Below are positions 45,418-60,300 of a DNA stretch of 64,000 nt, piece by piece. Origin of the DNA: an uncultured Desulfohalobiaceae bacterium (GTDB lineage: Bacteria; Desulfobacterota; Desulfovibrionia; Desulfovibrionales; Desulfothermaceae). The notes beneath the pieces are model-generated. The model ran no database searches. It was not told where the DNA came from and saw only the letters and a list, made by a program, of their open reading frames with translations. Where the stretch lies: NCBI GenBank assembly GCA_964619345.1, contig CAZUER010000002.1:15011-79010 (forward strand), in the 5' to 3' direction. A program made the position numbers and the translations under genes. The first letter of the stretch is position 1; every line of letters starts with the position of its first letter.

Positions 45418-46824
45418 TTACAGGCAGAGCATAAAGGCCGACAAATCCTTCTTTTCCTGCTGGGTGAGATCCAGCTGCAGCACCAGGTTGAAGAACTCCA
45501 CCGTATCGTCGATGGTCAGCAGCCGGCCATCATGATGGTAGGGTGGCGAGTCCTTGATTCCCCTGACAGTGAAGGCTTTGATCGGGCCGTCCGGTATGGA
45601 GTAGTGGTCACTTATCATCTCCGGCTCATAAAACCGCTCCAGGTGGAGATCCTGCATTTCGTGATTGGTATAGGACGGTGCTGGATGGCACTCACCGCAG
45701 CGGGCTTTGCCAAAGAACAGCTCCTCACCCCGCAGCTCCTGCTCAGTAGCCTTGGCCTTGACGAGGCGGCCGGCTGGATCAAGCTTCGGAGTCGGAGGAA
45801 AGTCAAACATATTCTGCATCTGAGCCATCATAGCCACCTGGCTGGCCCGGTCAGGCAAGTTCACGCCCTTCTTGGCCGCAATGACGTGGTCCCCGTCAAA
45901 GTAGGCGCTCCGCTGCTCGAACTCGGTGAAATCCTCGACCGAGCGCAGAGACCTCTTGGATCCATGGATCTGCTGGCTGTGCATCCCCCTGAGGCTGACT
46001 GTATCCAGCCGCAGGCGAGCAGCCTGGGGCCTGGTGTCCGGATTGAGATGGAAGGCGGCATTGGTGTGCCCGTTGACGTGGCAGTCCAGACAGGTCACCC
46101 CTAAGCTCGGCTCCTTTACCTTGCGGTCCTCCGTCTGATTGAACTGCTGCTGAGGAAATGGCGTCAGCAGGAGTCTCATGCCCTCCATTTGGACCGGGGT
46201 GAGTATGCCCTTAAAGATCTCATAGTAGTTCTTGATGGAGAGCACTTTGCCTTGAGAGACATCTCCCAGATCCGGACGGCTGGTCAGATAAATGGGCGGG
46301 GGGAACTCGGGCGTAAAGTGGTCCGGGATATCGAACTCGGTATCGAAACGATTGAGATTTCGATTCTCGAATTTGCGCATGGCATCAATCTGATTTTGAG
46401 GGAACACCTGACCGCCTGTGGAATGTTTGGAATGGGGCAGAGGCCTGAACCCCATAGGAAAGAGATCTTTTTTCTTGATCTCGGCAGGGGTCATTTGGGA
46501 CAGCTCCTGCCAGGTCACCCCTCCATGGAGCTTGACCCGCACTCCGCGCTGCACAGGTTTGCGTTCGGCTGACATCATGGTCTCAGAGGGGTTGTCGCTT
46601 AAATCATAGCGCCTCTCCAGAAGCTCCTTCTGGCGCTTGATGTACATGGGCCGGTCCGCGACGTCCTTTTCCATGATTTCCTCGAAGCTTTTCTCGATCA
46701 CCACCGGCATGTAGGTAGCGTTGTTCAGTTTGACCTCATTCTTGGCCAGCACAAGACCACCAAATACGGTCAGGACTCCTCCCATGGCTAAGCAAGCTGA
46801 GGCCAGGAGTTTTGCTTTGAGCAT
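45418..46824 (-). CDS. di-haem cytochrome c peroxidase/MauG-family protein
   Basis: I place the start at ATG 46824 (AAAGGAGGGG upstream), which gives a signal anchor. There are two haem c sites, CLDCH and CGECH, with surrounding CCP-like blocks (GVTCLDCHVNGHTN, FFGKARCGECHPAPSYTNH, PPYHHDG). Confidence 0.8.
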   Translation of the reverse strand: MLKAKLLASACLAMGGVLTVFGGLVLAKNEVKLNNATYMPVVIEKSFEEIMEKDVADRPMYIKRQKELLERRYDLSDNPSETMMSAERKPVQRGVRVKLHGGVTWQELSQMTPAEIKKKDLFPMGFRPLPHSKHSTGGQVFPQNQIDAMRKFENRNLNRFDTEFDIPDHFTPEFPPPIYLTSRPDLGDVSQGKVLSIKNYYEIFKGILTPVQMEGMRLLLTPFPQQQFNQTEDRKVKEPSLGVTCLDCHVNGHTNAAFHLNPDTRPQAARLRLDTVSLRGMHSQQIHGSKRSLRSVEDFTEFEQRSAYFDGDHVIAAKKGVNLPDRASQVAMMAQMQNMFDFPPTPKLDPAGRLVKAKATEQELRGEELFFGKARCGECHPAPSYTNHEMQDLHLERFYEPEMISDHYSIPDGPIKAFTVRGIKDSPPYHHDGRLLTIDDTVEFFNLVLQLDLTQQEKKDLSAFMLCL

Positions 46825-47297
46825 CTCGCCCCTCCTTTGTGGAGTTCGATGTTGTGTTAAGTAATTGACTTGATACGCGGGTGCGAGTACTGAGCCCGGT
46901 TCTAGACCAAGGCAGGGCCCACTGGGATTTGATCCTTGTGCCAAGCGGAAAGACTCAAGGACAGAGCTGAAGATTTTTCTGCAGCATGCTGAGCACAAAG
47001 GAGAGGGGATACAGACTTCATACTGTTATTTACTTCATATGGTATCTGATTTTTGGATCCGGTCAATCCATAGAGGTGAAATCTACCCGATACATCACCT
47101 TTCACCAGGCCTGAACCCAAGAAATGCTCAGCACAATTGCCGCCAAACGGCTCGTTTCACCTGTTTCTGGGCCAGGGACGTGAACCGCCTGGCAGCCAAG
47201 GTGCTCAAACCATAATTTGGCATTGACGGCTATTATCACAATAAGAACCTTTGCAGCGCTTGGCTTGTTCAGGCTTATGGAAAAGATATTCCCTGTC

Positions 47298-50200
47298 TCA
47301 TTCCTTTTGATCTTTGCCCAGCACTTGCTGCATGGCTGAGAACAGCTTTTCAAAGCCGACCGGCTTGAGCACATATTCGTTGAAGCCTGCATGCTGGTAG
47401 CTCTGCTTTTCCTGTTCGGTCACGGTCTGGGCGGACAGGGCAATGATCGGGATATCCGGGTTCATGACCAGAGGATCTGCGGTCCGAATGCGCATGGTGG
47501 CTTCGATCCCGTCCATGACCGGCATCCTGATGTCCATGAGCACCAGGTCGAAGCTGCCCTGGGCCAGCTTGTCCAGGGCCTGCTGACCGTTCTCGGCCAC
47601 CGTGACCTGGTGGCCGGATGTGGAGAGAAGGTCTATTGTGAATATTCGGTTCATTTTTTGATCTTCCACCAACAGAATGTTCAGGGGAGAGGAGTCAGAC
47701 CAGGATTTGGACCAGACAGCTGTATCGCTGCTCGATTCAGGCTCCTTCATGATTTGACCTTCGGTTTGAAAGGGCAGCTGAATGGAAAAGGTGCTGCCTT
47801 GGTCGGGTTTGCTCTCCACCCAGATTCTGCCCCCCATCTGCTCGGACAGGTTCTTGCAGATGGCCAGACCCAGCCCGGTACCCTGATCTGACGACAGTGA
47901 ATCATGGCCTCCCTGGTCGTAGGAGTCGAAGATGGTCTGCAGCCGGCTCGGATCGATGCCCTTGCCCGTGTCATTGACCTTGAAGAGGACCGTGGCGAGA
48001 TTGAAAGGATTTCCTTCTGAGCGGACGGCCAGATCGAGCTGCTCGGCCTCAAGGGAAACTGAGCCCTGGTCCGTGAACTTAATGGCGTTGGAGAGCAGGT
48101 TGTACAGGATTCGTTTCAATCTGTAGGGATCTCCGATCAAAACAGTGGGCAGGTCCCGGTCCACTCTCAGGTATTGCTTGATGCCCTTTTCCGAGGCAAG
48201 GACTTCAATCTCCTTGCACACATTGTTTAAGAGCCGGCGTGGATGGAACTCCTTTTCGTGCAGGGTGAACCGCCCAGCTTCCACCTTGGACAGGTCCAGG
48301 AGATCGTTTAAGAGCCAGAGGAGCGATTCCGCCGAGCTCTTGGCCACCTGGATCCTCTCCATCTGCTTGCCTTGAAGGCCTCCGGACTGGGCCAGCCGCA
48401 GCATACCCAGTATAGAGTTCATCGGGGTCCGGATCTCGTGGCTCATCTTGGCCAGGAACTCGGATTTGACCCGGTTGGCGGTCTCTGCCTGCTCCTTGGC
48501 CCGCTGGAGGGCCGCTTCGGCCTGGATCTGTTCGGTGATGTCAAGTCCGGTACCCACGAAGTACTGCTGCTCGTCCATGGTAATGAAATCAATGGAGAAG
48601 ATGGTATGCCTGAGCTCCCCGCCTTTTCTCCGGACCGAGAGCTTATGTTTGGTGATAGCGCCTTCAGGAGAAATGGTCTGTACGATCCTTTGTCGCTCCT
48701 CCGGGCTGATGATGCCAAGCTCCAGGGATGATTGACCGATTATTTCGTCGTGGGTGAAGCCGGTCAGATGGAGGTAGGTGTCATTGGCCTCGATGATCCT
48801 GCCGGTATCGACTTCGCTGATGAACATAAATCCCGGATTGTTGAAAAAGGCCTTGGCAAACTTCTCCTCGCTCTCCTGCCTTGCTCGCTCCAATTTCTTG
48901 ATTGGGGTGATGTCCTGGAAAACAGCTACTGCGCCCGAACGCTCCCCATCAGAATCCACTAAGGGCTCACTGTTGACCAGTACCCAGCGTTGCTGCCCGT
49001 CGGGCCATTCAATGCACACCTCCTCCTGTCGGCAGGTCTCACCGCGAAGGGCTGAGCGGCTCAAGGGGAGCTCGTATGGGTCGTAGATCATGCCAGCAGG
49101 ATGCGAGATGGAGAGGAAGCGATGGCTCTCGACTTCCTGCCCGTAAGGCACTGGCCGGTTGTAGATGCTATCAGCGGCCGGATTGGTCATTAGTATGCGA
49201 GCCTGCCGGTCACAGACCACTATGCCCTCGGGTGCGTTGTCGAATATGGCTTTGTGCAGCGCCTCACGCTCGGTCAGCTCTTTTATGAGCTGCTCGCGCT
49301 CGGCCTTCTTGTGCTTGCGGTCAATGAGGTCGGAGGCCATTCGGGCCAGGATATCCAGGTGGCGGGTATTTTGCTCGCTGAGACTATGAGGCCGGCCCCA
49401 ATGGGTGGAGAGCATTCCAATAAGAGCGCCCGACCGGGACAGCAGTGGGGTGCTCTGGGCCGCTTTGATTCCATTTTGAAGATAGGCATCCAGCTCATCG
49501 CTGCCCTTTAGAAAGTCGCATTGTGTTACATCCGGCACGAGGACCCTTTGCCGGAATTGAAGGGCTCTTCCACAGGTGCTTCGGGTGGTTGGTGTCACCC
49601 ATTTCCAGAAATCTGCGGCTTGTTCAGTAAAGCCTCTGCATGCCAGAAGCTTGAGTTTTCCATGTGTCCCACGATCCTGGAAAAACAAATGCAGGCTGGC
49701 GTAATCTGCCTGGGTGGTGGACAAAGCGGCGTCGAGAATCTTTTCGTTAAGGTTTTTGTCGTCCTTGGCCTCGACGAGTTGAGTGCTGACTTGCTGGAGC
49801 TGCTGAAGAGTGTTGAGCTCTTCGGCCGTGTCCTGCTCACTTTGCCGCAGAGCCTGAAGGGTTCGCTTCATTTCGGTGATGTCTGCTATTGTTTGGACCG
49901 CCCCGATGATCTCTTCGTTTTCATTTCTGATGGGTGCTGCACTGGAATGAACCGGGATAGGCTCCACCCTGTCCCGGGGGCGACACTGTATTTCCTTCCG
50001 GACCACAGTCTCGCCTCGGATCGCCCGTGAGGAGACCAGCTTCTCCGGGGGCAAGACCCGACCCTCTGCATCAGTGACGGTCAGGAGCTTGATGCGCTCC
50101 TCTACAGGCCAAGCCCGGATGTTCTCAAGGCTGTAGCCGGTCATGGCTTCAGCTGCCGGGTTCATGCGGGTGATCATGTTCTGGTTGTCGTATATGATGA

Positions 50201-50447
50201 CCCCTTCGGTAATGGAGTCCATGATCATTGAGTATTCCTTAACCTGGCATTCAGCCTCGGCCAGCCTGGTCTTGAGGTTGACGTTCTTCTCGTGGAGTTC
50301 CTTGTTCTGGGCCAAGCTTGACCTGTAAAGAATCGCCATTTCAGAAAGCAGAAACTGGATATCGGCCTCGGAAAATGAGGACCCATCAGGAATATTGCCG
50401 GTTTCAAAGGCTTCCCTGGCCAGCTGTCTCAGCTCTTCAGAGTCCAT
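47298..50447 (-). CDS. hybrid sensor histidine kinase (PAS-PAS-GAF-PAS-PAS-HisKA-HATPase-REC)
   Basis: H-box [11 protein letters not shown] boxes ([24 protein letters not shown]), and a C-terminal receiver ([10 protein letters not shown]...[14 protein letters not shown]...KP). Several PAS-like blocks and one GAF-like block lie upstream. Confidence 0.9.
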
Positions 50448-50753: not shown

Positions 50754-52685
50754 TCAAACTGCAACGTTTCTTTTCAGGACCTGCATTAATTCCTCATAAT
50801 CCATGGGCTTGGCTATGTAGTCATCCATCCCGGAGGACAGGAATTTCTCTTTATCGCCGGACATGGCGTAAGCAGTCATGGCTATGATCGGGATGTCCTT
50901 GATATCGCCTTTCAAAGACCTGATTCTCTTCGTGGTTTCAAGCCCGTCCAGAACAGGCATCTGGATATCCATGAGGATGCAGTTGAAACTGTTATGGTTC
51001 ATCTTTGCAAGAGCGTCTTTTCCGTTTTCTGCAATCTGGACTCGGGCTCCGGACATTTCTAAAATATCTCTGAGATAGAGCTGGGTCATACGGTCGTCCT
51101 CAACCACCAGGAGTCTCAGATCCCTGGAGCTACCACAGGGCATTTGGGCACTCTCACCATCCAGACTACAATGCTCAACGCTTGGGATGCGAAAAGGCAA
51201 GCTGACATAGATGGTTGTGCCGACACCTTCCAGGCTGTCTATGGCCAGATTTCCCCTGATCAGCTTGATCAGTCTTTTGACCAGGGGCAGGCCCAGCCCG
51301 GCCCCTTCATGCTGCCTGGCGTAGGGAGAGGGGTTGTTGCTGCCGGCCTGGGTGAAGGTTTCAAATATCCAGTCTATCTTGTTATCGGAAATTCCGGGGC
51401 CTGTATCGGATATGATAAAGAGGACCCTGCAGACATTTTCCTGGTATCTCGGCAACTGAGCGGCGTGAACCTCGATTCGGCCTTGATGCGTGAATTTGAC
51501 GGCATTGCCCACAAGATTGAACAGGATATGTGTCAATCGAGAGGAATCGCCGGTGAGCTTCTTTGGCAGGCCTGGATCATAATGTATTTCCAGGGTATTC
51601 CCATTTTCCTGAGCCACATGGGCAAAAGTATCCTTGATGGACTGCATGGTCTCGGGCAGCGAAAAAACATCCTCGCTGATCTCCATTTTATCGGCTTCGA
51701 TCTTGCTCAAGTCAAGAATTTCTTTCAACAATCTGGCCAGCCGCTGTGAGGACTTGGTGGCCATGTCCACATATTCTTGTTGTTCCTGGTCCAAATCAGT
51801 GGTCTGCATAACCTGCATCATACCCATGATTCCGTTCAAGGGAGTGCGAATTTCGTGGCTCATATTGGCCAAAAACTCCGACTTGGCTCTGTTGGCGGCT
51901 TCAGCCGACTCCTTGGCCTTCAGCTGCTCGGTCAGATCCACCCCCATGCTGGTTACATCCTGAATATTTCCATATCCATCCTTTGTCACCACATTGGACC
52001 AGGATATGGTCCGCTTTTCTCCGTTTCGAAGCACAATTTCGTTTTCAAAGCTGGAGAACTTCTCTTCGCTGTCGCTGGAAATGGTTTCAAAAAAGACTTG
52101 ATGGACTGATTTTCGAATGTCTTTGGGGATAAAGATTGAAAACCAGTCTTTTCCCCAAATCTCTTCAAAATTCCAGCCGGTCAAGCTCAAAAAATGCTTG
52201 TTGGCATAACCTATGGTGCCGTCCGGCAACAGAGAAATGCTGATCTGGGGAATGTCCTCCAGGATTTTCCGGAAACGCCTGTCGGAATCTTGTAGCGCTT
52301 TTTGGGTTTTTATACGCTCGGTAATATCGATCACACTTGTGTACAGGATATCTTTGCCTTGGAAGGTTATTGGTCCGCTGTAGACTTCAACATCCCTGAT
52401 CTCGCCGCTTTTCAGACGGTGCTTGAACTGGAAGTACTGCCGGTCCATGTCTTTGGCCTTTTGCATTTCCATCCGGATTTCATCAGGGGTTAAGGTGTTG
52501 ATGTCGAAAATAGATGTGCCGGCCATCTCATTTCTGGTCCAGCCGTAAAAGGCGCAGGCCGACTTGTTGGCATCAAGGATATATCCGGTCTCTGGATCAA
52601 TCAGGAGCATGGACACTGCATTGTCCTCAAAAAGGGACCGGAATTGCTTTTCACTTTCCACTTTTGATGGTTCGTGGGAAATCAT
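50754..52685 (-). CDS. hybrid sensor histidine kinase (PAS-PAS-HisKA-HATPase-REC)
   Basis: H-box [26 protein letters not shown] and GAGLGLPLV. The C-terminal receiver reads [10 protein letters not shown]...[14 protein letters not shown]...KP. Confidence 0.9.
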
Positions 52686-53208: not shown

Positions 53209-53700
53209 TTACACAGAGGCAATCCTCAGATTTTTTTCGATGCGCAGAATATTCTGATCGTCGTGACGCATATAGGAGTAGGAATCCGAGAGCTGAGAAA
53301 TAATATAAATTCCGCGTCCAGACTCCTTGGTTGGATCAAGCTGATGATCTTTTTTGCCTGGCCCTGAGAAGGGCTTGCCACCGTCAAATATCTTGATCAA
53401 CACTTTGTTGCCGTTCTCCACAACGAGCTGCACCTTGATATAACCGTCGTGGTCATTGTTGTATCCATGAACCACAACATTGGTGCAGGCCTCTGTGATG
53501 ATCAGCTCCAACTCAAAAAGGATCTTGGGATCTGAAGTGAACCTTTGCAGGAAAAAGACAGCCTTGCGGGCAAGACTGCGACAGTCATGGATGTTGGATT
53601 TAGAGCTGAATGTTTTTCGCATCTTTCTAACCTGCTGCGGATGACTATCCACATGAGGATTTTTATAAGCAGGAGTGGTATTTGAAAAAGAATCGGACAT
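53209..53700 (-). CDS. RsbW/SpoIIAB-like anti-sigma-type serine kinase (HATPase_c_2)
   Basis: LELIITEACTNVVVHGY...IKVQLVVENGNKVLIKIFDGGKPF...GRGIYIISQLSD follows the N-box / G1 / G2 pattern of partner-switching kinases. Confidence 0.7.
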   Translation of the reverse strand: MSDSFSNTTPAYKNPHVDSHPQQVRKMRKTFSSKSNIHDCRSLARKAVFFLQRFTSDPKILFELELIITEACTNVVVHGYNNDHDGYIKVQLVVENGNKVLIKIFDGGKPFSGPGKKDHQLDPTKESGRGIYIISQLSDSYSYMRHDDQNILRIEKNLRIASV

Positions 53701-53757
53701 GGGCTGCTCTGCAATCTCGTTCAGTTTATTATGACAATAAGATGTATGTTCAAAAAA

Positions 53758-54276
53758 TTATGAAATCGTGTTAATACCAAGAACCCTTTCCAAGGTTTCT
53801 TTCAAAACCATTTTTGTAAAAGGCTTTTGCATGAAGGCCTGGGGTTGATGCTGGCGTTTTTGGATTTGAATTTGGGCTTCGTAAATCCCACTGGCCAGGA
53901 CGACAGGTGTGTCGAACCGGATGTTCCGAATGGCAGCCAAAGTGGCCCATCCATCCATTTCCGGCATGTTCACGTCCGAGAGTACCAGGCAGATCTCGTC
54001 ATGCCGTTTCCTGAAGCACTGAAGGGCCTCTTTTCCGTTTTTTGCGCAGAGGGTGTGATAGCCGAGCTGTTCCAATCGGAGCTTGATCAACTCCCGAACC
54101 ATATCGTTATCTTCGACCAGCAGCACAGTCCAGGTCTTGCGATCAGCCGGCAAGCTTGGAACCTGTGTCATTGTTTCAGGGCCTGCCAATCTCTGAGTAG
54201 CCCAGCTGAAAGGGCCTGACCACTGGTTCTGAAAAGTCGTATTTCCCTCATGAGCGGGAGTGTGTTGATTTTTCAC
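53758..54276 (-). CDS. single-domain response regulator (CheY-like) with an N-terminal extension of about 45 aa
   Basis: GTG start with GGAGG 5 nt upstream. VLLVEDNDMVRE, LVLSDVNMPEMDG and MQKPF match receiver residues. Confidence 0.8.
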   Translation of the reverse strand: MKNQHTPAHEGNTTFQNQWSGPFSWATQRLAGPETMTQVPSLPADRKTWTVLLVEDNDMVRELIKLRLEQLGYHTLCAKNGKEALQCFRKRHDEICLVLSDVNMPEMDGWATLAAIRNIRFDTPVVLASGIYEAQIQIQKRQHQPQAFMQKPFTKMVLKETLERVLGINTIS

Positions 54277-54386
54277 AAGAAACCTCCAATTTTAGGATGT
54301 TTTTCAGGTGCAGAGCCTGCCAGAGGCGGCGCCCACACTTTGGTGGGTGCAAAAGTCTTTTGCACCCACATTCACATGGTTCTGAA

Positions 54387-55025
54387 TCATCTTTTCTCAA
54401 GTGTCTCTTCAGCCAATCCCTGGCTGGTGATGGTGGCCACATGCAGGGGAGAGCTGATGGATGAGTCATCGGCCTTTTGCAGGCTGTGCATTTTTGAGGT
54501 GATCATAGAAGAGAGCTCTTCCAATGTGATGCCTTGTGAAATCTTGGTGGCCAATCCATATTCAAACCCCATAAGCCTGGGCACTGAAAATGCTGTGCTG
54601 ATTTCTTCCCGGTCCAATTGAGGCAGTTTTTTTCTGTTCCATATCAGCTCCAGCTGAAAAGCCGGCTCCTGCTCGAAGTTCATTCCCCCCAAAATGAAGT
54701 ACATGTGCTGGACAGGATCTACCGGAAGGCAATTGCATTTTCTGCGCATAACCTTCTCGTATTCACTGCTCAGAAAAGGGAGGGCGGCCATAGCCACATC
54801 TGATGTTGAGGTCAGCCTTTCCCCTTCAATAAACTGAGCCAGTGATTGAGCGATCTGCACGGCATCTGCGTCCCCCCCGGCCAGGATAAGGGTATGGGTC
54901 GAGAGACGAACCAAAGGATTGATGGTAACTTCCTGCATCTTTCCGTTCAGATCAAAGTCAAACCCTTTGCTGTCAGCAGCCATGATGAGCCCGTCACTAC
55001 TTTTGGCCACAATGAACTGAGTCAT
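54387..55025 (-). CDS. proteasome beta-subunit-like Ntn-hydrolase homologue
   Basis: SD GGAGG. MTQFIVAKSSDGLIMAADSK has Thr directly after Met and Asp at mature position 17. LILAGGDADAVQIAQSL, YFILGGM and HVATITSQG parallel conserved blocks of proteasome beta/HslV/Anbu/BPH. This alignment was done by eye only. Confidence 0.55.
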   Translation of the reverse strand: MTQFIVAKSSDGLIMAADSKGFDFDLNGKMQEVTINPLVRLSTHTLILAGGDADAVQIAQSLAQFIEGERLTSTSDVAMAALPFLSSEYEKVMRRKCNCLPVDPVQHMYFILGGMNFEQEPAFQLELIWNRKKLPQLDREEISTAFSVPRLMGFEYGLATKISQGITLEELSSMITSKMHSLQKADDSSISSPLHVATITSQGLAEETLEKR

Positions 55026-55037
55026 GACTCGCCTCCT

Positions 55038-55349
55038 TTACACATGAATGAAGATAGAAAAGATTCCATCAACATAGACTGATTTGACCTTGGCTGCAGA
55101 TGTATTGAATTCCAGAGGTATCCTGTGATTAAAACTTACAGGTCTGGATAAGTCTTGTGTTCTTGATATAGGAGTACCAATCAGTTGGAGTCCATTTTCA
55201 TGCAAATGAAAGGACAGCTCTTCGTCTTTGAACTCAGGGCAATCCACCTGAACGATGCAACCTCTTTGACTGGATCGAATAGTTGTCGGCGGATGAAAAC
55301 TTTGTATCTGAGTTGAATAGTAAGATCTGCTGATGTCTGGCAGTGTCAT
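55038..55349 (-). CDS. small alpha-crystallin-domain (Hsp20)-like protein
   Basis: SD AGGAG. IVQVDCPEFKDEELSFHLHENGLQLIG ... FNHRIPLEFNTSAAKVKSVYVDGIFSIFI mirrors the ACD pattern (vDlPG.kkedi.v.v.gn.L.I.G ... F.R.f.LP..vd...i.A.y.nGvL.I.l). Confidence 0.55.
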   Translation of the reverse strand: MTLPDISRSYYSTQIQSFHPPTTIRSSQRGCIVQVDCPEFKDEELSFHLHENGLQLIGTPISRTQDLSRPVSFNHRIPLEFNTSAAKVKSVYVDGIFSIFIHV

Positions 55350-55548
55350 AAAAATATTCTCCTGTAATTAGAATGTTATACAGATTCGGAGCGAATGGAT
55401 GAATTCTGTGCATCAATACTGAATTTATTTGTCTCAGCAAAATGCATGCCGCATAGAAAGTTCAAAGATATCAAGTAGTCATAGTTAAGATACACACGGT
55501 AAGGATCTGAAAAGATTTGGGAGAAAAAAAGCTTGGACACTTGAAAGT

Positions 55549-55588: not shown

Positions 55589-55852
55589 TTAGAAATCAAT
55601 ATGAGGTTGAAAATGCATCCAAGGGGCTTTGTGCAGCTGGTTGAATATGCTGTGGCATGACCCACTTATTTGTCTCACCTTCTGTGTCAGACTGTGTCCT
55701 GGGACATGTTTCCCAGCTGATACCGGCCTGGATCACCGGAATGATCTTCCTATTCCTCGCTCAGGATATAAGGCACATTGATTGCACAAAACAGTAAGTA
55801 CCAGCACCTGAAAAGGACATGGAGACACAAGACCTGAAGGGGGGCAGATCAT

Positions 55853-56902
55853 ATGCGTGAAGCTTTGTGGTATTTTCAACATGAGAACGATATGGTTCGC
55901 TGTTTTCTATGCGCCCATACCTGCAACATAACCCCTGGGGAGCGCGGGAAATGCAATGTGCGGGAAAACAGGAACGGTGTCCTGTGGAGCTTGGTTTACG
56001 GCCGGCCGGTGGCCCGGCATGTGGACTTTATTGAGAAGAAACCGCTGTATCATGTCTATCCGGGCAGCTTGAGCTATTCGTATGGTACAGCAGGATGCAA
56101 CTTCCATTGTACCTTTTGCCAAAATGCGGATATTGCCCACCCCAGGAAAATCCTGGGAGCTATTTCAGTTCAGGACGTTCCTCCGCAGGACATTGTGTCC
56201 CAGGCACTGGTGCAAGGGTGTTCGAGCATAGCCGCCACCTACACTGAGCCTACGGTGTTCATGGAATACGCACTGGATGTGGCCAGGTTGGGACGCGAGC
56301 GACAATTGGCCCAGGTCTTTGTGACCAACGGATTCATGACTCCTAAGTCCCTGAAAGACCTCACCCCGGTCCTGGATGCAGCCAATGTGGATCTGAAGTC
56401 CTTTCGGGACGATTTCTATATCCAGCAGTGTGAGGCTCGGTTAAAACCGGTCCTTCAGACCTTGCGTTCCCTGAAAAAGGCGGGGGTATGGCTGGAGGTA
56501 ACCACTTTGGTCATTCCGGGGCTGAACGATTCCTGGGATGAGCTCACAGAAATGGCCGACTTCATAGCTTTTTCCCTAGGGCCGGAAACTCCCTGGCACC
56601 TCTCGGCCTTTCATCCCAGCTACAAACTGAAGGATCGTCCCCGAACACCTATTGAGACCCTGTTTAAAGCCCGTGAAATCGGGGTTGCAGCTGGATTGCA
56701 CTACGTTTATTTGGGAAATGTACTGGAGCCTGAATACAGACACACGTATTGCCATCACTGCGGAAGAAAGCTGATTGATCGGTCGCAAATGGTGGGTGAA
56801 CCAGTCGGCTTGCAGAATGGAGGATGCTCTGAGTGCGGCCATAGACTGCCAGGCCTGGGGATTCAGGTCAGCCAGGAGCTGTCCGGTGTCCATCGTTCAT
56901 GA
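55853..56902 (+). CDS. amrS: AmmeMemoRadiSam-system-type radical SAM enzyme
   Basis: The N-terminal Cys-rich VRCFLCAHTCNITPGERGKCNVREN is followed by the radical SAM cluster motif CNFHCTFCQN. The length and pattern are those of AmrS / PFL-activase-like proteins. Confidence 0.8.
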   Translation: MREALWYFQHENDMVRCFLCAHTCNITPGERGKCNVRENRNGVLWSLVYGRPVARHVDFIEKKPLYHVYPGSLSYSYGTAGCNFHCTFCQNADIAHPRKILGAISVQDVPPQDIVSQALVQGCSSIAATYTEPTVFMEYALDVARLGRERQLAQVFVTNGFMTPKSLKDLTPVLDAANVDLKSFRDDFYIQQCEARLKPVLQTLRSLKKAGVWLEVTTLVIPGLNDSWDELTEMADFIAFSLGPETPWHLSAFHPSYKLKDRPRTPIETLFKAREIGVAAGLHYVYLGNVLEPEYRHTYCHHCGRKLIDRSQMVGEPVGLQNGGCSECGHRLPGLGIQVSQELSGVHRS

Positions 56903-58168
56903 TTGGTAAATTTGAGAGGAATTTTTTTGAGGCTTTTTCTGCAGAATTCACTTTCCGGCAGCAAGGACATCTTCCATCCCCGGAGTGGTTCGGAGGTCAA
57001 GCTTTTCACCTGCGGACCTTCGGTCTATAATCTGCCGCATATCGGCAATTATCGGACCTATCTGTATGAAGATGTCCTGCAGCGGATGTTAGAGGCCATG
57101 GGCTATGGGGTCAGACGCATGATCAACTTCACTGATGTGGAGGACAAGGCTGTGGCTGAGGCCCAAAGCCGGGGGCTGGCCGGTCTGTCTGAATTGACTG
57201 TCCCCAACGAGGAGCGGTTCTACAGGGATGCCGAGTTGCTGGGAATCAAGCTGCCGCAGGAGATCCCCAGGTCATCTACAAGCGTGGATCAGGCGGTCTA
57301 CCTCATTTCCAGGCTTTTGGAGCAGGGCCAGGCCTACTGGCACAAGGGAGACGTTTTTTTTGACCCCCTTACCTTTGATGGCTTCGGGCGTCTCTACGGG
57401 CTGGATATGAGCCGCTGGCCGAAGAAAAAGGTCCGCTTCCGCAAGGACACCTATCCGGGGCAGCGATGGAATCTCGGCGACTTTATCCTCTGGCACGGGG
57501 GGCGATCGGATGACCCCTTTGTCTGGAAGACTGAGATCGGTTACGGCCGGCCGGCCTGGAACATTCAAGATCCGGCCATGATCAGCAAACATTTGGGCTA
57601 TGAGCTGGATATCTGCTGCGGCGGGGTGGATAACCTTTATCGGCATCATGACTACAACATGGCCATCATGGAGTCTGTATCCAAGAGTGTTTTGGCCCCT
57701 TACTGGCTGCATGGAGAGCATCTCCTGGTCGACGGGGTAAAGATGTCCAAGAGCAAGGGCAACATCGTCTATCCTGATGATCTCATCCAGAAGGGGTGGT
57801 CACCCGGTTTTCTGCGTTTTTTTCTCCTTTGGGTTCATTACCGCTCCGCGTTGAATCTTAAGGCAAGGAATGTCCAGCAGGCCTGGACCACATTCACCAG
57901 GTTGCAGAGCCTGGTGCAGGAATTTCGAGAAGGAGGTGCGGGCAGCAGCAAACAGGCCGAGCAGGCCCCTGCAGCCCACTGCCTGTCCAACCAGGCACTG
58001 GTATATCTGGCCGACGATCTGGACGTATCCTCAGCCATCCAATGTACGATCAAGATCCTGGAGCAGCTCCGAGCCTTGCAAAAAGACGGACGTCTCAGCT
58101 CAGAGGATCACAGGGCGGCCCTTGACGGCCTCAAAGAGCTGGATCAGGTCCTTGGATTCAATCTTTAA
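56903..58168 (+). CDS. cysteinyl-tRNA-synthetase-like class I ligase paralogue, C-terminally short
   Basis: CGPSVYNLPHIGN (HIGH-type), DICCGGVDNLYRHHDYN and KMSKSKGN (KMSKS) align with CysRS. No in-frame ATG precedes the HIGN motif. TTG 56903 directly follows the amrS TGA. Confidence 0.75.
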   Translation: MVNLRGIFLRLFLQNSLSGSKDIFHPRSGSEVKLFTCGPSVYNLPHIGNYRTYLYEDVLQRMLEAMGYGVRRMINFTDVEDKAVAEAQSRGLAGLSELTVPNEERFYRDAELLGIKLPQEIPRSSTSVDQAVYLISRLLEQGQAYWHKGDVFFDPLTFDGFGRLYGLDMSRWPKKKVRFRKDTYPGQRWNLGDFILWHGGRSDDPFVWKTEIGYGRPAWNIQDPAMISKHLGYELDICCGGVDNLYRHHDYNMAIMESVSKSVLAPYWLHGEHLLVDGVKMSKSKGNIVYPDDLIQKGWSPGFLRFFLLWVHYRSALNLKARNVQQAWTTFTRLQSLVQEFREGGAGSSKQAEQAPAAHCLSNQALVYLADDLDVSSAIQCTIKILEQLRALQKDGRLSSEDHRAALDGLKELDQVLGFNL

Positions 58169-60159: not shown

Positions 60160-60300
60160 TTATTTGTATTGAGAGGCTTCCTGCTCATCCAAGAGTTCCA
60201 TGTTTTCCCCGCAACAGACAAGGTCAGCACCACCGCCGACTTTCACTTCAACTACATTCCCGCATATGTTGCATCTGTAAACTTCATTCTTTTGAGGCAT
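60160..60300 (-). CDS. desulforedoxin (46 aa; below the ORF-track length cut-off)
   Basis: Read from the minus strand: [46 protein letters not shown], with SD GGAGA upstream. The CxxC...CC spacing and the VYxCxxCGxxVxV...LVCCGExM pattern match desulforedoxin and the N-domain of desulfoferrodoxin. Confidence 0.8.

Follow-up and report, generated by a model that had tools for sequence, protein, structure and literature searches.

We describe a locus in an uncultured Desulfohalobiaceae bacterium in which the gene for a small Hsp20-like protein directly precedes the gene for a proteasome-like protein of 212 amino acids (aa), with a receiver gene, an RsbW-like kinase gene and two hybrid histidine kinase genes following on the same strand. 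The locus lies in a stretch of 64,000 nucleotides (nt) that was analysed as a whole and is called the window here (assembly GCA_964619345.1, contig CAZUER010000002.1, positions 15,011-79,010 of the forward strand). On balance, we favor the hypothesis that two independent units stand head-to-tail by chance in this genome: a cassette of the Hsp20-like and proteasome-like genes, and a signalling module. The pairing of the first two genes recurs in a few close lineages and is optional there, and the order of all four genes was not found elsewhere among the loci compared. In what follows, “homologue” means the proteasome-like protein or its relatives, and L-numbers denote related loci.

Layout of the locus

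The four open reading frames (ORFs) are separated by intergenic gaps of 12, 110 and 57 nt. The first three are preceded by a Shine-Dalgarno (SD) sequence, AGGAG or GGAGG, and the fourth (53209-53700) has no obvious one. ORF analysis and reading of the sequence agree in coordinates, gaps and number of SDs with a preliminary description of the same DNA, and Pfam gave the domains of the two PAS-rich hybrid histidine kinases that it had placed downstream. The features of the locus are as follows.

55038-55349, minus strand: Hsp20-like bare alpha-crystallin-domain protein, 103 aa (PF00011, AlphaFold2 (AF2) model, Foldseek)
54387-55025, minus strand: propeptide-less protein with the predicted proteasome-beta (N-terminal nucleophile, Ntn) fold, 212 aa, probably of the PHD family (AF2 model, Foldseek, chain of profile matches)
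54343-54369, minus strand: 12-bp stem-loop (RNA folding)
53758-54276, minus strand: stand-alone CheY-like receiver, 172 aa, GTG start (PF00072, E=1.9e-18)
53209-53700, minus strand: RsbW/SpoIIAB-type HATPase_c_2 Ser-kinase-like protein, 163 aa (PF13581, E=1.3e-22)
50754-52685, minus strand: hybrid histidine kinase with two PAS domains, HisKA, HATPase_c and receiver (Pfam), 523 nt from the kinase-like gene
47298-50447, minus strand: hybrid histidine kinase with three PAS domains, GAF, HisKA, HATPase_c and receiver (Pfam), after a 306-nt separation
55436-55450, minus strand: sigma-54-like -24/-12 element GGCATGCATTTTGCT, a weak and tentative promoter call

The Pfam scan covered the 57 largest non-overlapping ORFs (at least 90 aa) of the whole 64 kb, together with a desulforedoxin-like ORF at 60166-60300. 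It found no HslU or other AAA+ unfoldase in the window, no ATP-grasp, alpha-E or transglutaminase gene and no Mpa/Pup; nor did it find a STAS, PP2C, sigma-factor or enhancer-binding protein gene there. None of the partners that usually go with HslV, Anbu, actinobacterial proteasomes or RsbW is present in these 64 kb, as the preliminary description had said.

Gene order in related loci

When the window proteins were compared with 93 related loci by tblastn, the RsbW-like kinase was next to the homologue in none of the 93. Receivers occurred near the homologue in 13 of them, at varying position, distance and strand, and the Hsp20-like protein appeared in one lineage only (L013-L015). Most members of the homologue family are lone genes, and the distant members have unrelated neighbors. 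Individual loci are arranged as follows; unless marked otherwise, percentages give the identity of their homologue to the window protein.

L094 (78% identity): Hsp20-like, homologue, Prismane
L095 (74%): desulforedoxin, homologue, membrane protein
L096 (71%): Hsp20-like, 70-aa gene, homologue
L013 (71%): Hsp20-like, 66-aa gene, homologue
L010 (68%): 90-aa gene, 74-aa gene, homologue, different receiver
L001 and L008 (52-54%): 67-71-aa gene, homologue, PolX, LigA
L097-L099: desulforedoxin, Hsp20-like (73% identity), Prismane; no homologue
L100: Hsp20-like and 66-aa gene; no homologue

The Hsp20-like and homologue genes are direct neighbors in L094 and have a gene of 66-70 aa between them in L096 and L013. 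The pair is found in at least four lineages, over which the Hsp20-like proteins have diverged to 37% identity. What follows the homologue differs each time among the relatives at 68-78% identity: it is Prismane, a gene for a membrane protein, genes on the opposite strand or an unrelated receiver. The last of these, directly downstream of the homologue in L010, is 25% identical to the window receiver and has another architecture. Conservation of gene order was found in part: the Hsp20-like/homologue pair recurs in other lineages, but the four-gene order recurs in none of the other loci compared.

Each member of the pair also occurs alone. The homologue is absent from L097 and L100, and it occurs without the Hsp20-like gene in L095, L010 and about 75 species, so the pair recurs but is optional in both directions. 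The earlier proposal that a small heat-shock protein (sHSP)-like protein accompanies a proteasome homologue holds as adjacency in L094 and as proximity in L096 and L013, but not as an obligate association. L094 and L097, whose flanks are 91-96% identical, differ by exactly 709 bp, which contain the homologue gene (L094:582-1290 versus L097:4139/4140). The junctions of this indel run from SD to SD, with no repeats or mobile-element ends, and in L097 the SD that precedes the homologue in L094 stands directly before the Prismane start, at the same 12-nt junction.

A partner conserved across the whole family was sought by unbiased clustering of ORFs within 2.5 kb at 87 loci and rejected, as the best cluster covered 15 of the 87 and reflected lineage synteny. 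In 15 loci (L035:3335-4768 and 14 other Desulfatitalea-type loci), a co-directional gene for an MgsA/RarA-type AAA+ ATPase precedes the homologue at a distance of about 180 nt, and a histone-deacetylase-family gene converges on the 3' end of the homologue in 13 other species (L059:5609-6430 and 12 others). Both neighbors are confined to single lineages and are probably lineage synteny, although MgsA is nonetheless an AAA+ protein.

The 212-aa protein as a proteasome homologue

In direct scans, the 212-aa protein matched nothing in Pfam or NCBIfam, and a single-sequence phmmer search of the PDB was also empty. A search returned 70 homologues, each roughly 208 aa long and each from a Desulfobacterota-type metagenome or metagenome-assembled genome (MAG), and an alignment of 57 of the 70 served as a family profile, A1. 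The matches of A1 to the PDB were weak (E 0.004-1) and mostly to proteasome beta subunits aligned from the mature N-terminus, with a few unrelated proteins among them (e.g., Nup85); the Anbu structure 5nyj was matched at E=0.36 only. The AF2 model of the monomer has a predicted local distance difference test score (pLDDT) of 89.9 and a predicted template modelling score (pTM) of 0.88. With it, Foldseek returned 464 PDB matches at E<=1e-3 (best 8.7e-10), which extend over the full length in about 220 columns with template modelling (TM) scores of 0.56-0.67. The best 50 of the 464 are all 20S proteasome entries, and the placement with the beta subunits comes from the A1 profile alignment.

Profile matches link the protein to the proteasome family by intermediates. 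A1 reaches two distant family members, P0230 (E ~1e-9) and P0243 (E ~5e-8), whose PF00227 scores of 40 and 43.9 bits exceed the cut-off (22.4), and hhalign of A1 against P0243 gives a probability of 97.4% over residues 1-207. An hhalign comparison of A1 with a Thermoplasma beta-subunit sequence gave 0.9%, which is meaningless; the assignment relies on Foldseek and on the link through P0243 instead. Judged by its predicted fold and by this chain of sequence matches, the 212-aa protein is a proteasome homologue with the beta fold. The call that the preliminary description had made by eye is sustained by a full-length fold match and a transitive link to PF00227, and none of these searches places the protein outside the Ntn/proteasome fold. 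As for the profiles named there, PF00011, PF00072 and PF13581 match their genes directly, but PF00227 is reached only via P0230 and P0243.

The first start codon of the ORF is an ATG directly before the Thr, with no upstream in-frame start possible, and all full-length members align from residue 1; hence no propeptide is possible. Compared with its L094 orthologue, the homologue gene has a dN/dS of 0.08; the corresponding value for the Hsp20-like gene is 0.155 (range 0.155-0.17). Both are therefore real genes under selection.

An exhaustive profile search of 1.84 billion proteins yielded 210 representatives of the family at 50% identity, a count that includes fragments. Among 185,579 GTDB species genomes scanned, there were 78 homologue loci, nearly all titled Thermodesulfobacteriota or delta-proteobacteria; the exceptions are three MAGs labelled Hyphomicrobiales, Proteobacteria and candidate division B38. 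The hosts comprise Desulfobacterales, Desulfatitalea, Syntrophobacterales, Syntrophobacteraceae, Desulfohalobiaceae, Desulfosoma and Desulfobacca, and all named members are annotated as “hypothetical protein”. Fuchs, Alva & Lupas (2021) described 22 new uncharacterised proteasome-like families, stated to keep the Thr1/Asp17/Lys33 triad, for which no suggestive gene contexts and no AAA+ partners were found (PMC8665760). Among them is PHD (Proteasome Homolog of Deltaproteobacteria), for which 55 nr90 sequences and the representative OGP72033.1 are listed (PMC8665760). Judged by the traits described for that family, the 212-aa protein is probably a PHD member.

The Hsp20-like protein as a bare alpha-crystallin domain

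The 103-aa protein matches the HSP20 family PF00011 above its cut-off (E=5.5e-5, 23.6 bits against 20.8). Its AF2 model, made from a five-sequence alignment, is of moderate confidence (pLDDT 75.6) and has seven strands behind a disordered segment of residues 1-16, within which lies an invariant LPDI.R motif. The top 50 Foldseek matches of this model in the PDB are all alpha-crystallin domains (ACDs) of sHSPs, with E down to 4.6e-6 and TM around 0.7. The chain stops at the last ACD strand (…GIFSIFIHV) and so has no C-terminal I-X-I tail. In other words, the protein is a bare alpha-crystallin domain, and profile and structure searches agree in placing it within the ACD fold, as had been suspected from the sequence.

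The family is very small. A word-based search of 5.8 billion proteins found 5 clusters, and a scan of JGI metagenome contigs with the Hsp20-like alignment found one locus only, L100. The gene differs in composition from its surroundings, with a GC content of 0.404 and a GC content at third codon positions (GC3) of 0.365, compared with 0.58 for the homologue, 0.52-0.58 for the neighbors and 0.55-0.72 for most of the window. This low GC3 may reflect separate or recent acquisition.

Active-site residues

Huber et al. (2016) identified Lys33 as the general base of the proteasome (PMC4792962). In yeast beta5, the K33A mutant with a free N-terminus retains about 17% of the activity by means of a water molecule, and no activity was measurable for K33R (PMC4792962). 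We compared these positions in 111 full-length family members, grouped by identity to the window protein. Thr2 here is the equivalent of Thr1, Asp18 of Asp17, position 20 of Arg19, position 37 of Lys33 and Gly51 of Gly47.

The window protein has Thr2, Asp18, Lys20 and Gly50-Gly51, with Pro37 at the Lys33 equivalent. Thr or Ser occupies position 2 in 106 of the 111 members, Asp18 is kept in 110 and Gly51 in all 111; a P149-R150...E155 motif is invariant throughout the family, and there is a GPPF-like motif in addition. No conserved equivalents of Ser129, Asp166 and Ser169 were seen, in a part of the protein where the alignment is uncertain. Positions 37 and 20 change in opposite directions from group to group.

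Deep members (<33% identity): position 37 K in 44 of 49; position 20 R in 33 of 49
Middle clade (33-47%): position 37 R in 51 of 51; position 20 K in 46 of 51
Window's clade (>=47%): position 37 P in 11 of 11; position 20 K in 10 of 11

Taken as pairs of positions 20 and 37, the combinations are R,K (31 sequences), K,R (46) and K,P (10), with K,K in only 2. Two alignments, that of HMMER to Plasmodium beta5 and that of hhalign to P0243, support the register. With Pro at the Lys33 equivalent, the window protein cannot use the canonical triad. The kept nucleophile and Asp, together with the reciprocal Arg-to-Lys change, suggest re-wiring rather than decay, and the swap between positions 20 and 37 may mean that the catalytic lysine has relocated.

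The receiver and the RsbW-like kinase

For both small signalling genes, the family assignments of the preliminary description (a CheY-like receiver and a partner-switching-type HATPase Ser kinase) were confirmed by the Pfam matches listed above. The receiver begins with GTG after a GGAGG and carries an N-terminal extension of about 45 aa; its acidic pocket (ED), the phospho-acceptor Asp in LSDVNMPEMDG, the Ser and the Lys (QKPF) are all readable. The 163-aa kinase-like protein resembles the NCBIfam models for RsbW (E=4.6e-11; 42 bits, cut-off 145) and SpoIIAB (E=3e-10) but reaches the equivalog threshold of neither, and its 11 homologues are all single-domain proteins.

One 45%-identical RsbW-like homologue lies, with a response regulator, 1.2 kb from the Hsp20-like gene in L097. 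Small Hpt phosphotransfer genes occur on the opposite strand at most about 1.5 kb from the cassette in three loci (L013:2815-3156, L095:2124-2471 and L100:529-918), in place of which the window has hybrid kinases and a receiver.

Transcription signals

The 12-nt junction between the Hsp20-like and homologue genes, with its GGAGG, is kept in the window and in L094. Such a junction suggests coupling, and the two genes are probably translationally coupled. The stop codon of the homologue is followed, after 17 nt, by a perfect 12-bp hairpin that lacks a U-tract. RNA folding of 54277-54395 (minus strand) gave a minimum free energy of -41.9 kcal/mol (z = -3.3), and 1 of 200 shuffled sequences was as stable. 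Lying between the cassette and the receiver gene, this hairpin may serve to end the transcript, to attenuate it or to affect its stability. Candidate U-tract terminators between the genes were rejected, as they were consensus-level matches only and occurred at about the chance rate.

The sigma-54-like element GGCATGCATTTTGCT is found 101 nt ahead of the ATG of the Hsp20-like gene, and a second one, at 55772-55786 on the plus strand, lies upstream of a divergent radical-SAM gene; both fall within the 503-nt divergent intergenic region between these two genes. The pattern is statistically weak, with three matches in the window against 0.99 expected and at least three in 7 of 100 shuffles. A similar element, GGCATACAAATTGCC, stands upstream of the L096 orthologue.

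Interpretation

Under the hypothesis of two units, the first would be a lineage-specific two-gene cassette, in which a minimal alpha-crystallin-domain protein is followed by a propeptide-less Ntn protein of proteasome fold. Removal of the methionine would expose Thr1 of the homologue. Asp17, Gly47 and the P-R...E motif are kept, Lys33 has been replaced by Pro, via the Arg seen in the sister clade, and Arg19 has become Lys. Such a protein could be an ATP-independent hydrolase with its base re-wired to Lys19 or to a water molecule. The alpha-crystallin protein could act as a co-expressed holdase or adaptor-type stress protein that serves whichever gene follows; in a close relative its gene stands directly ahead of the Prismane/hybrid-cluster gene. 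By Pfam, the cassette is surrounded by genes for redox and oxidative-stress proteins (rubrerythrin, desulforedoxin, hemerythrin, Pyr_redox_2, ETF and POR), and it is for this reason most likely part of a stress regulon. The second unit (receiver, RsbW-type kinase and two hybrid histidine kinases) would be an ordinary phosphorelay or partner-switching module, with STAS and sigma partners elsewhere in the genome.

Several observations weigh against this hypothesis. A hairpin without a U-tract is no proof of termination, so all four genes may be co-transcribed. The RsbW-like gene and response regulator of L097 and the Hpt genes of L013, L095 and L100 make some regulatory link to signalling genes possible. 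Within the cassette, a GC3 of 0.365 beside one of 0.58 favors separate histories over a co-evolved pair. The argument for Lys19 is one of covariation alone, and with Pro at position 33 and no conserved Ser129, Asp166 or Ser169 the homologue may be catalytically dead. The gene-order comparison, finally, leaves out the contexts of the closest relatives (83-91% identity).

The preliminary description had suggested that the locus may be a signal-controlled chaperone-peptidase module. Spelled out, all four genes would form one operon, the hybrid kinases would phosphorylate the receiver, and the receiver and RsbW-like kinase would switch an Hsp20-assisted proteasome-like peptidase on or off. Co-directional genes with gaps of 12, 110 and 57 nt, three SDs and no convincing U-tract terminator are consistent with this, as are the kinase homologue and response regulator 1.2 kb from the Hsp20-like gene in L097, the receiver directly downstream of the homologue in L010, and the Hpt genes near the cassette. 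However, an RsbW-like gene adjoins the homologue in 0 of 93 loci, receivers are sporadic, and the L010 receiver is a 25%-identical protein of different architecture. Signalling genes within 2.5 kb are found in 12 of 87 loci, on mixed strands and sides, which we judge to be roughly the background of genomes rich in two-component systems. The gene downstream of the homologue differs each time at 68-78% identity, a strong hairpin follows the homologue stop codon, and the homologue is cleanly absent from L097 where the kinase homologue remains. We have abandoned the idea of a four-gene module on these grounds and regard a single operon as improbable. A role as an anti-phage defence system or mobile-element cargo is far less probable still. 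The low GC content at 52-56 kb of the window, the presence/absence variation of the homologue between near-identical relatives and the phage-borne PPH and AAH families of proteasome homologues (PMC8665760) would fit such an origin. Against it, PADLOC matches none of the Hsp20-like protein, the homologue and the kinase and gives only a generic receiver match, the Pfam scan of window ORFs of at least 90 aa shows no integrase, transposase or phage domain, the indel runs from SD to SD without repeats or mobile-element ends, and the neighbors are housekeeping and redox genes.

A more serious competitor, though in our view still rather unlikely, is that the adjacency is purely historical: the homologue would be a pseudo-enzyme or structural protein since Lys33 became Pro, and the Hsp20-like protein an unrelated, separately acquired one that does not cooperate with it. 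Pro occupies the position in 11 of 11 clade members, no equivalents of Ser129, Asp166 and Ser169 are conserved, and both K33R and K33A are deleterious in yeast beta5 (PMC4792962). Each gene also occurs without the other, the two differ sharply in composition, and the homologue has no family-wide neighbor, the best being lineage-specific in 15 of 87 loci. A dead site would not be expected to keep Thr/Ser2, Asp18 and Gly51 near-invariant in the clades without Lys33, however, and the reciprocal Arg19-to-Lys change looks compensatory. Strong purifying selection (dN/dS 0.08) likewise argues against decay, and an SD junction of 12 nt kept in the window and L094, with the pair in at least four lineages whose Hsp20-like proteins are down to 37% identity, argues against a chance association.

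The hypothesis of two units can be carried further, to a version that we offer as a long shot. In this Desulfobacterota lineage, the catalytic Lys would have moved from position 33 to 19 (K33/R19, R33/K19, P33/K19), and cassette proteins would form an unfoldase-free, ATP-independent chaperone-protease pair under redox stress, with the minimal alpha-crystallin protein (and a 66-aa protein in relatives) delivering or holding substrates. If the relocation is true, it would be a new active-site layout.

Small proteins and neighboring genes

In most relatives at 50-71% identity, a conserved protein of 66-74 aa is encoded immediately upstream of the homologue. It carries the motif …Y[KQ]N[YH]TIR[IV]…C[SD].Y.[YF]V[IV][IV]DP[ED]G.E[IV]KHV..GG… and has no match in Pfam or PADLOC. 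Among these relatives, its gene accompanies the homologue more consistently than the Hsp20-like gene does. A copy hidden in the window was considered and rejected, tblastn being negative. A second conserved protein, of 74 aa (MSWV.VTRF…EEPGEWK), recurs close to the cassette among Desulfohalobiaceae-type relatives; Pfam gives no match for it, and it was not found in the window. The positions of the two genes are as follows.

66-74-aa gene: L013:539-739, L096:1871-2083, L010:851-1075, L001:5784-5999, L008:6741-6944, L018:2822-3019, L100:263-505
Second 74-aa gene: L001:5532-5756, L006:5611-5835, L008:6040-6264, L044, L097:10745-10969

The divergent radical-SAM gene (55853-56902, plus strand) abuts the next gene (56903-58168, plus strand) with zero gap. 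The latter starts with TTG and encodes a 421-aa protein with a class-I cysteinyl-tRNA synthetase (CysRS) catalytic domain, and the two may form a non-canonical ligase system. In L100, too, the cassette has the same radical-SAM gene nearby. On the minus strand at 45418-46998, a 526-aa ORF contains two CxxCH haem-binding motifs (CLDCH and CGECH), and none of its Pfam matches rises above noise. The left third of the window (243-23101) is an iron/siderophore-type uptake region with two TonB-dependent receptors, ExbB/ExbD/TonB, DUF3450, FecCD permeases, and ABC ATPases with periplasmic binding proteins.

Significance

A signal-controlled chaperone-peptidase operon would have been notable, but the comparative data do not support the operon claim. 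The most interesting piece of the locus is instead the series from K33/R19 through R33/K19 to P33/K19, which asks whether a proteasome-fold enzyme works without Lys33. If the Lys19 variant is active, the known catalytic repertoire of Ntn hydrolases would widen; an inactive variant would parallel, in bacteria, the eukaryotic beta subunits that lack activity. A family that was catalogued without a functional clue thereby gains two handles, this natural active-site series and an SD-coupled pairing in a narrow clade. The latter joins the homologue to a bare alpha-crystallin-domain protein and a conserved 66-aa protein.

Comparison with known systems

The signalling genes resemble RsbW/SpoIIAB partner-switching and HptB-type phosphorelays, where, as in the window, a single-domain HATPase_c_2 protein stands beside a receiver and hybrid histidine kinases. 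RsbW/SpoIIAB modules include a STAS antagonist, a PP2C phosphatase and a sigma factor, whereas the 64 kb studied here hold none of these, and the kinase falls far below the NCBIfam equivalog cut-offs for RsbW and SpoIIAB. The 103-aa protein has the alpha-crystallin beta-sandwich in common with sHSPs such as Sulfolobus Hsp14 and wheat Hsp16.9 and scores above the Pfam HSP20 cut-off. Unlike these, it is only 103 aa long, a short disordered N-terminus with LPDI.R replaces the hydrophobic N-terminal region, and the C-terminal I-X-I tail for building large oligomers is missing.

The predicted Ntn alpha-beta-beta-alpha fold of the 212-aa protein is that of HslV, Anbu and BPH, and an N-terminal Thr/Ser nucleophile without a long propeptide is a trait it has in common with Anbu and BPH. 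The Asp17 and Gly47 equivalents are likewise shared with these proteins, but Lys33 is missing. HslV has an adjacent HslU, and Anbu an operon with ATP-grasp, alpha-E and transglutaminase genes, neither of which the window contains; the sequence likeness to these proteins is marginal (E=0.36 for Anbu 5nyj, no direct match to PF00227).

The closest known family is PHD. Both PHD and the family studied here have the predicted proteasome-beta fold, lack a propeptide, are restricted to Deltaproteobacteria/Thermodesulfobacteriota, and have neither an AAA+ partner nor an informative conserved context. PHD was small at 55 nr90 sequences, compared with the 210 representatives at 50% identity (fragments included) found here. 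It was described among families with the triad, whereas the window's clade has Pro, and its sister clade Arg, at position 33. A pairing that is confined to one clade and involves an alpha-crystallin-domain gene and a 66-aa gene is not reported in the PHD paper. The statement of the preliminary description that no such system had been described accordingly applies to the pairing, and not to the homologue family, which was very probably catalogued in 2021 with no informative context (PMC8665760). The locus is a variant within a catalogued, uncharacterised family, and it is the pairing of an alpha-crystallin-domain protein with this homologue that is new to description.

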